A stretch of 64,000 nt of DNA from Eledone cirrhosa (Eukaryota). The notes under the pieces were generated by a model. It was not told the origin of the DNA and ran no database searches. It saw only the letters and a program-made list of their open reading frames with translations. The stretch spans positions 22,630,001 through 22,694,000 of the forward strand of contig OZ024751.1 in the NCBI GenBank assembly GCA_964016885.1, given 5' to 3'. Shown piece after piece: positions 14,893-61,557 of the stretch (its first letter is position 1; every line of letters starts with the position of its first letter). A program made the position numbers and the translations under genes.

Positions 14893-15226
14893 GTTATATT
14901 TAATTTGTTGGGATACAACAAGCAAATATTTTTATAACTTATATAAAGCACTCAACAAATTTGTAAAAATACAATATATTAACAAATGGAAACTATATTT
15001 ATAAAACCATATTTATTTCATTATACATATTTCAAGGACTACCCGGGAGCTTCCAACCGACATGGTTGCATTCTTTAAGGGTATGTCAATATTTGTTTAT
15101 AAAACTGATCTATATTATATTTTATCTGATGAAAGCGCACCATAATTTGCTTTGGTGTCCTTGAAATATGTATAATGAAATAAATATGATTTTATAAATA
15201 TAGTTTCCATTTGTTAATATATTGTG
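14893..15226. mobile_element. Family Q HHR-bearing element with inverted arms (14971-15039 / 15157-15226)
   Basis: Arms are reverse complements; homologous to 21165-21352, 26485-26661, 40527-40703 and 53440-53552. Confidence 0.85.
15118..15182 (+). ncRNA. Minimal type I hammerhead ribozyme (family Q)
   Basis: Stem I tattttat/atgaaata; CTGATGA 15126-15132; stem II aagcgcacca/tggtgtcctt (imperfect); GAAA 15163-15166; stem III T-ATGT-A; triplet AUA. Confidence 0.8.
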
Positions 15227-15290
15227 TATATATATATATATATAAATATATATATATATTGTATCTGCCGATATTACTTCTTGTTGTTTT

Positions 15291-15336
15291 AATTGCCCTG
15301 ATGAGTCCTTAATAGGACGAAACATTGTCGGCTAAT
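15291..15336 (+). ncRNA. Minimal type I hammerhead ribozyme
   Basis: gcc-CTGATGA-GTCC(ttaata)GGAC-GAAA-C(att)G-TC-ggc; intact core, GUC triplet. Confidence 0.85.
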
Positions 15337-15700
15337 AAAGACTTTTGATGTATTGAAGGCTTCTTTGTTTTATTCTCTTAATTTTTCGGCTCTGTTTAAC
15401 TACATTGAGCTATACCTTTTACTGTCATTTCTATAATACGAGGAGGGTGTTTAACTCCAACACGCTCCAGTATTTTAACCCTTATATATATATATATATA
15501 TATATATATATATATATAAGAGAGAGAAGGGGGTATAATCCAGACTACGATGCCAAGTAGATTCGGATTGTGATATATACAGTGTAAATGATTCAGTGAA
15601 TTACAGGTGGTGGTACCAATATGAGATCTGGTCAATTAATATACCACAGAGTTAGAGGCTGCTTATATATGTGAGTGAGTTTATAGCTCATCTTATATAT

Positions 15701-15885
15701 AATTGTTTCTACTTTAGGCACAAGGCCAGCAATTACCCAGTGCATTACTGGTACTTTATTTTATCGACGCCGTAAGGATGAAAGGCAAAGTCAACCTCAG
15801 CGGGATTTGAACTCAGATCGTAAAGGGACGTAACTATGCTGGAAAGCATGGCGTCCGACCCTCTACCGATACTGCCAATCCACTC
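15701..15885 (-). mobile_element. SINE family A, young copy with 17 bp target-site duplication
   Basis: Near-consensus; ctcatcttatatataat at 15687-15703 and 15883-15899. Confidence 0.93.
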
Positions 15886-15904
15886 ATCTTATATATAATG
15901 AGTA

Positions 15905-16240
15905 GCAAATTAACAGAGCAGGATAGAACACTTTGAGGTATTCGTTTAAGCTCTCTGCTCACCGAGTTCAAATCACACTTATCCTGCATTTAACTTTGCT
16001 TATCATCCACTCGAGGTCGATTAACAAAGTCCCAATGAAGAATTGGGTGTCGTTTCTTCCTCTATATCTCCTATATCTCTTTCTCATTTTCATTATCTCA
16101 TTCTCTCTATCCTTCTCTGGAAGAAATCTACTGTATTCAGACATGATGTGGGGTGGGGATGGACTCCACCAGGTTATAAAATGCCCTACGACTCCCCCAG
16201 GAATTACAGGACCATGTATGGCATATATAACAGTGTTTGT
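15905..16240 (+). mobile_element. Old SINE A variant with an extended 3' tail
   Basis: B box gagttcaaatc near 15965; tail homologous to 23105-23290. Confidence 0.65.
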
Positions 16241-16494
16241 GGCTGCTTATTCCATAGACACGTAATTACTTTTAACGTAATTACTAAATCCAATTAGCGT
16301 GAGAAAATATATGACAAGGCTGGAGCTTTTAATTACAGGTATAACCCAACCGAGAGGCTTCCACACAGTTTCCGTGTACCAAAATGATAAGATACATTTC
16401 ACAAAATACCACACATTGAGATCGAAACTAGAACCTCGTACCCATTCAAACATTAATTTATTTATCAGTACGGACATAAGCAACTGTCACATGA

Positions 16495-16706
16495 CCCAGG
16501 GGTAGAACTTAAGCAAGATGGTTGCATACCATCTACGTGTTCGGCTGGTCTCAATTGGGAGTCCAGCCGGATCAGATGGAAACAATTGCTTCTGACAGGA
16601 ACCGCTGGAAGGCGGCGTGCTTGAAGATTCTGCTCCCCTACGACCATCTCATGGAGGAGAAGAAGAAGAAGAAGAAGAAGAAGAAGAAGAAGAAGAAGAA
16701 GAAGAA
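16495..16706 (+). mobile_element. RTE-clade LINE 3' end with (GAA)n tail
   Basis: Peptide QLGVQPDQMETIASDRNRWKAACLKI fits the RTE ORF C-terminal A.DR..W motif; simple-repeat tail follows. Confidence 0.7.
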
Positions 16707-58240: not shown

Positions 58241-58743
58241 TCCATTTCTATTTCTAGCCTAAGAAGGGAACAGTTGAATTCAAGAGTTAATGATTATATG
58301 ACATAATTTTGTTACGTCCAGTTTGGAAAATGGCGAACTGTCAAAACTAACTAACATCGCCAGAGAAAACCAGATGTAATGGTGGATAAAAAAAGAAGAG
58401 CCAAAAAAAACAAAACAAAACGTGGTCAGGTCATAAAAGAATTGTCGGAAGAAGATATTTAAATCATCTTTTTTATTATTATTATTACTTTTTCTTTTGT
58501 AAACTTCTATCTATTGTGTGTGGTGCAGTGACACCAAAACTATTAAACAAAACATCAAGCAAGAATTTCATTTGTCTTTTTAAATATAGATTATCGCTTT
58601 GCAAATAATCATCATCATCATCTCTCTCTTTATATATATATATATAGAGAGAGATAGAAACACACATATATACATACATACGTGTGCGCTTACACACACA
58701 TCAATATATATATATATATATATATATATATATATATATATAG

Positions 58744-58933
58744 TAATTGTTTCTACTTTAGGCACAAGGCCAGCAATTACCCAGTGCATTACTGGTACTT
58801 TATTTTATCGACCCCGTAAGGATGAAAGGCAAAGTCAACCTCGGCGGGATTTGAACTCAGATCGTAAAGGGACGTAACTATGCTGGAAAGCATGGCGTCC
58901 GACCCTCCACCGATACTGCCAATCCACCGCCCT
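58744..58933 (-). mobile_element. SINE family A, young full-length copy
   Basis: Nearly identical to 15701-15885. Confidence 0.94.
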
Positions 58934-59526
58934 TATATATATATATAGTAATAATAATAAATTTGAAGACTAAAATCCAAAGAGGGCTCGATAAGGATAA
59001 ATATATATCAAATATATAAGAACCGTAGAGCAATCTGTTATTTAAAATATATATATATATATAACAAAGGGGTCCTGATTCTTTTCCTATATATACATAT
59101 ATATATATATATATATATATATATATATATATATAAAATATAACATATACTCGTGTCGGTAAACAATCAACATATACTCAATATATATATATATATATAT
59201 ATATATATATATATATATATATATATATATGTATATGTATATACAGAGAGGGAGAGAGAAAGAGAGAGAGAGAGAGAGAGAGAGGAAGAGAGAGAGAGAG
59301 AAAGAGAGAGAGAGAGAGAGAGAGAGAGAGAGAGAGAGAGAGAGAGAGAGAGAGATGGATTGATAGATATATATAGTTAGGTAGATAGATAATAGCAGAA
59401 GTGTTTCATCTAATTCCTTGGAAAAGTAAAGCAATGACGACGTCAGCACTTCCTCGCTATAACGTTCACTAATGGCTGATTTACAGCTGAGTCGTCTTTT
59501 CTATTGCAGATTATATATATATATAT

Positions 59527-60233
59527 TATTATCAAATGATTCTATGGACATACTTTATAGTATATTGCTCTGATTATTTAATTTATTAATTCATCATTGA
59601 GCCACACCGTGAATGGTTGCCAAAACATATATATCTGTGACTTCGTCTAGTTTGTGTATATGTAAATCTTTATATTTGATAATCTCCCATAAGGTTGAGA
59701 TCCAATTTGGGCAATATTGGGCTGCGCTTTCTAGCAACCAGCCCACTCGCCGTAAGCCACCAATCACATTCTTTCTGACTTGACCACTGCCACGTCACAG
59801 TTCTTAGCCATTTTGAAATCGTTTCTGGCGGGGATCATTTAAGAAAAATCTTTGTCCAAGTGAGTTTGTTTCCTGATGAGTTCGAAGCTCGAGAATTTAT
59901 CCTTGATAGGATATTTCCGAAAGCGAACGAAACTCTAAGGGTAGAAACGTAATCCTGGTATGTGTATATGCATTTTTTCTTCTAACTTTAATTTTATACC
60001 TAATTGTGTATTGTTGACGGTATATTTAATCGATTTCCACGTGCTATTGAAATGTTGGGTAAATATTCTATAGCGGTTGATCGCGAATGAATTGCTATCG
60101 TTTATTTATCTACTATTTCTTCATAGGTGACTTTTAATCTTATAGCCTGGTTTAATTGGGTTTTTTGTGTGGTTGATTATGCTAATTGGGAGAGGAAATG
60201 GTGTATATATATTATCAAATGATTCTATGGACA
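59527..60233 (+). mobile_element. HHR-bearing unit with a 24 bp terminal direct repeat (683 bp period), in (TA)n; retrozyme- or pseudo-LTR-like
   Basis: tattatcaaatgattctatggaca at 59527-59550 and 60210-60233; no ORF; intact HHR inside. Confidence 0.72.
59867..59949 (+). ncRNA. Type I hammerhead ribozyme, intact core, extended stem II
   Basis: tgtttc-CTGATGA-GTTCG...tatcct(tgat)aggata...CGAAC-GAAA-CTC(taa)GGG-TA-gaaacg; predicted cleavage after GUA at 59943. Confidence 0.9.
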
Positions 60234-60836
60234 CATATATATATATATATATATATATATATATATATATATATATATATATATATATACATGAATATAT
60301 ATATATACATGAATATATATATATATACATAAATATATATATATATATATACATAAATATGTATAAACACATATACATATATATATATATATATATACAT
60401 ACATATAAATATATACATAAATACATATACATATATATATATATACATATACATAAATATATACTTATATATATATATATGTGTATATATATATATACAT
60501 ATATACATATGTATACATATATACATACATATATATATATAAATACATATACATATCTATATATAAATACATATACATATCTATATAAAACATATACATA
60601 TCTATATAAAACATATCTATATACATATATAAATACATATTCATATATATATAAATACATATACATATATATATAAATACATATATATATATAAATACAT
60701 ATACATATATATATAAATACATATATATATATATATATATATATATACGTGTATATATATATATATATATATATATATATATATATAAGTGTGTGTGTGT
60801 GTGTGTGTGTGTGTGTGTGTGTGTGTGTGTGTGTGT
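60234..60836. repeat. Interrupted (TA)n then (TG)n
   Basis: Direct inspection. Confidence 0.95.
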
Positions 60837-60859
60837 GCTCTCCTTGGGCCGCAATTGGT

Positions 60860-61172
60860 TCCTAAGACGAGAGTTCCCGTTGTTTGATCAACGGAACAGC
60901 CTGCTGGTGAAGTTAACGTTCAAGTGGTTGCTACATTGACACATTTATCCTTAACATAGATCTCAAGGAGATTCAATGTGACACGGTGTGTGACACACTG
61001 CATGACAAGACTGACCCTTTCAATTACAGGTACAGCTCATTTAAGCCAACTGAGTGGACTGGATCGACGAGTAATTAAGTGAATTGCCCAAGGACACAAC
61101 ATGTCAACGTGAATCCAACTCACGACCTTGCGAACGTGAGTTGAATATCATTACTAAGTCACACACAAGCAC
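60860..61172 (-). mobile_element. SINE family B, near full length, diverged
   Basis: gatcaacggaacagcctgct...ctgagtggactgga...caaggacacaac...aactcacgacc. Confidence 0.8.
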
Positions 61173-61345
61173 GCACACACAAACACACACAGACACATAT
61201 ATATATGTATATATATATGAACACACACACACAATATATATATATATATATATATATATATGCACACACACCACACATAATATATATAAATATATATATA
61301 AATATATATATATATAAGTATATCAATAAATATATATATATATAT

Positions 61346-61557
61346 ACGTTATTCCGGGTTGAGTCGGAGGTAACCACAGTAAGTAAGGTACTCAATACAT
61401 TGCAGAGTATAACAGTTTTAATATAGATGAGATTCTACAGGACTAGAACTGTTTCATTCTTTAGAAATCATCTGGAATCTGGGTATACCCAGATTCCTGA
61501 TGATTTCTAAAGAATGAAACAGTTCTAGTCCTGTAAAATCTCATCTATATTAAAACT
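61346..61557 (-). mobile_element. Family R fold-back element: spacerless 144 bp palindrome (61414-61557)
   Basis: 72 bp arms centred on gggta|taccc with two mismatches; CTGATGA-tttc(taaa)gaat-GAAA starts at 61497. Confidence 0.88.

Follow-up and report, generated by a model that had tools for sequence, protein, structure and literature searches.

The 64,000-nt stretch of Eledone cirrhosa contig OZ024751.1 analysed here (positions 22,630,001 to 22,694,000, assembly GCA_964016885.1; hereafter called the window) contains many short elements with hammerhead ribozyme motifs, which are probably 3' modules of Penelope-like elements (PLEs) that are moved in trans by at least two types of enzyme. Seven of the families (A, A2, B, G, P, M and N) have a bulged hairpin in common, consisting of RCTC, a stem-loop, UU or UA, and GAGY. 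This covarying hairpin beside the short insertion end is the new observation, whereas hammerheads in PLEs, their preference for (TA)n and the existence of short non-autonomous derivatives were already known. The hammerhead/PLE-type repeat class comprises 28 segments, 9.1 kb of the 64 kb. The window has a GC content of 35 % and a low-complexity share of ~45 %, its repeats resemble in type those of octopus genomes, and neither a gene-like open reading frame (ORF) nor a tRNA gene was found in it.

Hammerhead motifs in the window

An earlier, sequence-only reading of the window had placed hammerheads at 15 coordinates. A hammerhead-like motif was found at each of these or at most ~60 nt from it, the minus-strand coordinates of that reading being the low ends of the motifs, and the cores start at 15126+, 15298+, 21604+, 22152+, 33383-, 35370-, 36485-, 36608+, 40627-, 40772-, 45819-, 47967+, 53456+, 59873+ and 61497+. 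A type I descriptor (CTGANGA, stem II of at least 3 bp, GAAA, stem III of at least 2 bp, NUH and stem I of at least 3 bp) gave 8 matches, compared with a mean of 0.06 in dinucleotide shuffles of 200-nt blocks and 0.05 in dinucleotide shuffles of the whole window (150 of each, maximum 2), so that the density of hammerheads exceeds that of shuffled sequence. Without stem I the descriptor gave 11 matches, against 0.4 in shuffles, and on the reversed and on the complemented window the type I descriptor gave none.

That the set consists of motifs arising by chance where (TA)n is frequent, or of fold-backs created by amplification or assembly, is already refuted and retains next to no probability. 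Runs of (TA)≥5 do make up 12 % of the region, the bare core shows only slight enrichment (34 matches, with 18-20 expected and a shuffle maximum of 34), which counts for chance, and the arms of the family H fold-back are 98-100 % alike. However, the structured matches stand far above the shuffles, short interspersed element (SINE)-like ends are seldom near (TA)n, most fold-back arms differ by 4-24 % in a masked self-BLAST and bear a one-sided tail, and identical element ends recur in independent contigs.

The full three-stem descriptor was passed by 7 of the 15 sites. Three more have a stem I of only 2 bp (22152, 45819 and 47967), whereas the remaining five (21604, 33383, 35370, 40772 and 61497) fail and are read as decayed or variant hammerheads. 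At 21604, stem II is broken in the window copy, and a G at 21626, present in ~99.6 % of the contig depth of public sequencing runs, restores the pairing. The core at 33383 has two changes (TTGATAA), and at 35370 an A.C lies at the base of stem II and stem III is weak. The sites 40772 and 61497 have a U.U at the base of stem II, which is frequent in hammerheads of the Hydra clade of PLEs (Files S1 and S2 of PMC8557442), and their stems I differ in sequence yet both pair.

In families A and A2 the hammerhead pairs hold in 78 of 80 cells (97.5 %), with seven pairs changed on both sides, a result matched by 0 of 500 shuffles, in a count that is based on four sequences and on a structure drawn from those same sequences. 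Folding energies of single hammerheads are mostly unremarkable (z +1.8 to -3.4). The Rfam hammerhead models gave no match at the gathering score in the window, and at E≤10 no hammerhead was among the best 150 of 461 matches, a list full of microsatellite matches to miRNA models. Self-cleavage is predicted for the intact copies.

The 15 sites were assigned to 13 elements, two pairs of sites being the arms of single fold-backs, and these to nine families, one of which accounts for three sites. Only A and A2 could be aligned with each other, which bears out the earlier estimate of at least eight dissimilar families. Many variant families per genome, an extra base between positions 9 and 10.1 and a palindromic helix III are features common to the window motifs and the minimal metazoan PLE hammerheads described by Cervera and de la Pena (2014, PMC4209133), and several window families have palindromic stem III loops. 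The earlier reading had referred to the minimal type I hammerheads of PLEs. Not every motif in the window is of this form: it is seen in D and, decayed, in F, whereas A, A2 and I have long stems I and II, several others are decayed, and in the abundant family P the 3' half of a hammerhead is all that is kept.

The bulged tail hairpin

The distance from the predicted cut to the start of the hairpin is 25-59 nt, and in families A, A2, G and P the hairpin lies 1-8 nt beyond the short end. The hairpin descriptor matched 12 times, compared with 0.15 in shuffles, although it had been built after these copies had been seen. The upper stem varies in sequence and length and yet pairs in 20 of 21 cells over seven distinct loops, as counted by script; control values were 8.5 after shuffling, 14.9 with the partners swapped (p 0.005) and 3-10 with the strands slid. 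In the lower stem, an A-U pair has become G-C in family B. MAFFT put the hairpins out of register.

Hairpins that look similar by eye occur in published PLEs of the Hydra clade (Craig et al. 2021, PMC8557442, File S7). Two of the six consensi, read by eye, contain it exactly, 43 nt after the cut in Hydra-2_Amil and 38 nt after it in Hydra-2_Ajap, and two contain a loose or degenerate form (Hydra-1_Crog and Hydra-1_Amil). The other two, Hydra-1_Obim from Octopus and Hydra-1_Ajap, stop at AT-rich ends ~36-46 nt after the cut, before the hairpin could appear. By eye, the 3' ends of the window families showed no extended sequence identity with those of Hydra elements and no match to the 3' end of Hydra-1_Obim, and the hairpin was not seen in the Octopus consensi of the Naiad clade. 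The portions of PMC8557442 covered here describe neither the hairpin nor non-autonomous Hydra families, and no description of the hairpin was found in the accessible literature, subscription papers, Repbase reports and preprint supplements lying outside its reach.

In metagenome contigs, sequence related to the hairpin follows a three-stem hammerhead at 7 of 32 loci, which belong to two families and have no ORF nearby. The three-stem test excluded the other 25 matches, of which L025 and L030 are single-change members of the real families. A PLE-type hammerhead repeat followed by the variant hairpin was noted in contigs L012, L013, L014, L019, L021, L022, L025, L030 and L032, and L025 holds two tandem copies. 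The pattern of family A gave no match in metagenome contigs. The single match of the hammerhead-plus-hairpin pattern in viral contigs was without stems and was rejected as chance.

By analogy with the anole PLE, the hairpin likely marks the site at which a reverse transcriptase binds and starts, and the hairpin-bearing group is likely served by a reverse transcriptase-endonuclease of Hydra-clade type. More tentatively, and with somewhat less than even confidence, the hairpin may act in cis as the conserved signal of a single PLE lineage, retained between corals, sea cucumbers and this genome and found elsewhere as a variant, which would bind the telomerase-related reverse transcriptase and fix an internal start; many unrelated hammerhead mini-elements would then compete for the enzyme and jointly colonise (TA)n, occupying ~14 % of the window. 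Internal starts of a PLE enzyme have been mapped in vitro for one element. The hairpin is a candidate signal of 25-30 nt, by which such an enzyme may recognise its RNA and choose its start, and which can be mutated and rescued; it offers a way of matching orphan mini-elements with their enzyme, and with it a large repeat class overlooked by Rfam comes to light.

Insertion layout, (TA)n targets and the moving enzymes

In the usual layout of the elements, an inverted 3' arm is combined with a direct copy and with a tail of 60-110 nt on one side only, and each family has two kinds of 3' end, a short one and a long one which includes that tail. D, E and I are single units of 310-690 nt closed by a direct repeat. 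The window thus contains both structures by which PLE insertions are recognised, a direct pseudo-long terminal repeat (pLTR) or an inverted, 5'-truncated copy with a one-sided tail, of which the inverted 5' arm with a tail is the one regarded as canonical for PLEs (PMC8557442, section 6; PMC3846280). The inverted arm, the palindromic junction, the one-sided tail, the two alternative 3' ends and the AT-rich target are all as described for the pLTR insertion unit of PLEs (Arkhipova et al. 2013, PMC3846280; Frangieh et al. 2024, PMC11167929).

Most elements had been described as bounded by (TA)n, and the flanks confirm this. Within 15 nt of (TA)≥5 lie 40 of 50 element ends, a partly circular figure because many ends were placed by eye at runs, compared with 3 of 36 SINE-like ends and 6 % of random positions. 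Of 12 ends positioned only from the symmetry of the arms, 10 abut (TA)n, one is unresolved and one (family J) does not. For 15 of 16 predicted cuts the next downstream run is at most 250 nt away, compared with 40 % (p ~1e-5), the threshold having been picked post hoc and the fold-back arms being non-independent. In contigs of public runs (four runs, at most two samples, one study), other genomic copies break at 21270, 21790 and 21856 and then continue as (TA)n, with ~60-110 contigs per place in runs X1-X3. More than 21,000 contigs map to this 1.3 kb in each of X1-X3, and the families are therefore abundant.

The type I hammerhead near the 3' end, the (TA)n preference and the inverted 5' copies are shared with Hydra-clade PLEs (Craig et al. 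2021, PMC8557442), as is, by eye and in part of their consensi, the bulged hairpin after the hammerhead, although the window elements have no ORF. Among the Hydra families listed in Files S1 and S2 of that paper, 26 of 27 prefer (TA)n. Both Hydra and Naiad PLEs, those of Octopus included, have this preference (PMC8557442), and insertion into (TA)n together with a canonical hammerhead would fit the Hydra clade without being unique to it. The layout and the published (TA)n-preferring PLEs support the earlier proposal of non-coding, PLE-type elements which carry ribozyme motifs and are targeted to (TA)n. A repeat annotation of O. vulgaris from 2026 reports active Penelope families, and its main text leaves ribozymes unmentioned (PMC13282606).

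That proposal had also included a single TA-targeting enzyme which moves all the families and may lengthen (TA)n on insertion, and this part is improbable. All elements except two or three touch (TA)n, and the runs beside elements are longer, with a median of 15 units (n=28) compared with 8 (n=213), but longer runs are explained equally well by larger target size or by slippage. The 3' ends which we take to be of the RTE type, a kind of long interspersed element (LINE), are also TA-flanked, in three of four cases. Besides the hairpin type there is a second type of 3' end, common to D, to a D-like stub and to F, and C, E, H, I and J show neither type. In Octopus, moreover, (TA)n-preferring PLEs of both Hydra and Naiad are present (PMC8557442).

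A second alternative is that the families are 5'-truncated 3' ends of many different autonomous PLEs and merely inherited the hairpin, which is possible, if somewhat doubtful, and is compatible with movement of 3' modules in trans. Most copies are short 3' stubs, in the public runs the 3' part of D has 20-40 times the contig depth of its interior, and strong 5' truncation with inversion is usual in PLEs (PMC8557442, section 6). By contrast, D, E and I are whole units with no ORF between their repeats, no ORF is recognisable in the 1.2 kb that lie upstream of the family H hammerhead, and the copies of P start in one common 5' region.

The elements resemble animal non-LTR retrozymes in being short, non-coding and equipped with a type I hammerhead (Cervera and de la Pena 2020, PMC7229834; Li, Clavereau and Pollet 2026, bioRxiv 10.64898/2026.07.22.740005). 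According to the parts of these sources drawn on, retrozymes are repeats of 100-700 nt, commonly monomers, and are regarded as non-autonomous PLE derivatives. The window elements, known here from DNA, differ from them in having many fold-backs, strict (TA)n targeting and no tandem dimers. Strict retrozymes, whose tandem transcripts are cut by the hammerheads, made into circular RNAs and reverse-transcribed more than once round, are an unlikely explanation. D, E and I do resemble a unit plus an overlap, the inverted arm of C starts 1 nt 3' of the predicted cut (a single, suggestive case), and the palindromic stem III loops recall dimeric hammerheads (PMC4209133). On the other hand, no tandem array with two hammerheads on the same strand was found in the window, D has a terminal repeat that begins 15 nt past the cut instead of at the cut itself, family P spreads with only one hammerhead half, and the anole PLE inserts without need of hammerhead cleavage (PMC11167929). 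No circular junction was readable among the 15 of 167 contig joints listed.

If the elements are PLE 3' modules moved in trans, a Hydra-type reverse transcriptase-endonuclease would bind the RNA of the hairpin-bearing group at the hairpin, by analogy with the anole PLE (PMC11167929), and would nick the (TA)n target. Reverse transcription would start just 5' of the hairpin, aided by a UA-like match of 1-7 nt to the target, and give the short end, while an alternative start at the far end of the tail would give the long end. For the anole PLE in vitro, reverse transcription has two internal starts, the tail being what lies between them, and AT-rich DNA is cut (PMC11167929). The mirror arm might come from a second, inverted copy or from fold-back of the cDNA, and hammerhead cleavage is perhaps dispensable for insertion. 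The majority of the genomic copies are dead stubs.

Several observations weigh against this scheme, in addition to the post hoc descriptor and the reading of the published consensi by eye. The window tails of 60-110 nt are longer than the published 30-40 bp, and the anole PLE starts in an AC-rich stem-loop of different sequence from the bulged hairpin (PMC11167929). Taken singly, the hairpins have weak folds (z -0.2 to -2.3), and the descriptor scan did not find the hairpin in C, D, E, F, H, I or J. A match was also seen in one Naiad element (Naiad_Mmer), and the metagenome form, at loci picked by the pattern itself, has a 1x1 mismatch where the bulge would be, so that the motif may not be Hydra-specific. 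In a Pfam scan which took in 78 of 192 open stretches, none reached a cut-off, so that no PLE protein remnant (reverse transcriptase and GIY-YIG) was found there, and homologue searches with the H arm, an RTE-like end and the frame upstream of a family A copy were all blank.

Individual copies and other repeats

Family A is represented by four copies. The copy at 14888-15226 (+) has an inverted 3' arm and tail, followed by a direct copy with a three-stem hammerhead (core 15126, predicted cut after 15174) and a short end at (TA)9. That at 20969-21356 (+) lacks the 5' half of the hammerhead and has a complete tail with its hairpin at 21270, while those at 40527-40700 (-; core 40627, short end at (TA)17) and 53429-53545 (+; core 53456) have three-stem hammerheads, the latter between (GA)n and (GATA)n and not (TA)n. 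A frame of 48 codons with one stop lies upstream of family A at 20971-21114 (+) and bears a faint likeness to the end of an endonuclease; a search with this frame (X at the stop) found no homologue. An A-related 3' stub lies at 26484-26661 (-), with a hairpin at 26560- containing one mismatch. Family A2 is a fold-back at 36297-36705 (-) with an intact hammerhead in each arm (36485-, 36608+), a tail at 36386-36297 and the hairpin at 36380-. Family B, with (TA)n on both sides, lies at 15260-15482 (+) and has a three-stem hammerhead (core 15298, cut after 15329) and the tail hairpin at 15389.

Two fold-backs with tails belong to family G, one at 40715-40905 (+) with an intact core in its inverted arm (40772-) and the hairpin at 40847, the other at 61346-61556 (-) with an intact core at 61497+, a mutated one at 61474- and the hairpin at 61408-. 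A deleted G copy lies between (TA)n runs at 54627-54703 (-). About 20 nt of the G inverted arm (40736-40760) resemble by eye the 3' untranslated region of Naiad_Mmer upstream of the hairpin match, a likeness which may be due to chance.

Among the families in which the hairpin was not found, C (21369-21846, +) has an inverted arm at 21369-21517, a decayed hammerhead (core 21604) and a 60-nt tail; a diverged stub of its arm end lies between (TA)n runs at 43044-43117. D (21857-22269, +) is a 338-nt unit with a 75-nt terminal direct repeat, a minimal hammerhead (core 22152) and the second type of 3' end, and a D-like 3' stub at 39246-39336 (+) ends at (TA)39. E (33213-33568, -) has a terminal direct repeat and a decayed hammerhead (core 33383), and F (35269-35737, -) a decayed minimal hammerhead (core 35370) and a 3' end like that of the D-like stub. 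H, at 45671-48228 (+), is a 2.45-kb fold-back with a 110-nt tail and hammerhead-like cores at 45819- and 47967+. I, at 59526-60234 (+), is a unit of ~685 nt with a short terminal direct repeat and a three-stem hammerhead with a long stem II (core 59873).

Family J, six copies of P, the lone tails M and N and several stubs were absent from the earlier list. J (63096-63362, +) is an old fold-back (arms 76 % alike) with a decayed hammerhead (core 63264) and is not TA-flanked. The M tail (14151-14229, +; hairpin 14156) stands directly after (AT)16, and N (32892-33075, -; hairpin 32996-) is a segment flanked by (TA)n runs in which no complete hammerhead was seen. The P copy at 14303-14439 (+) consists of the hammerhead 3' half and tail hairpin without an inverted arm. 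Two P fold-backs at 17359-17833 (+; 17359-17548 and 17641-17833, hairpins 17477 and 17762) have (TA)46 between them, another lies at 40128-40343 (+; hairpin 40272), a short one whose centre is the stem III loop at 48496-48631 (+; hairpin 48560), and a diverged copy at 62825-62975 (+) has a degenerate hairpin near 62910. The centres of the P fold-backs are at the positions of would-be stem II or III loops of a hammerhead, each a single, suggestive observation. An old hairpin at 20164-20300, with a hammerhead-like 3' half and its centre on a stem II-like loop, resembles family P in plan.

The RTE-like label of the two 3' ends at 26727-27030 and 62353-62490 is our assumption, Pfam and homologue searches with them having been blank; both finish in (TAGA)n and sit in (TA)n. 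The SINE-like family that served as control (~180 nt, abundant, 80-98 % alike) was found at 15694, 22623, 26216, 31585-32094, 39786, 51943, 56084 and 58754, and one of its copies is TA-flanked. Isolated short palindromes or tandem arrays of SINE-like (~85 nt) and AG-rich units occur at 20788-20857, 21111-21184, 51128-51468 and 51518-51896, and a 144-nt unit is repeated three times in tandem (97 % alike) at 3510-3944.

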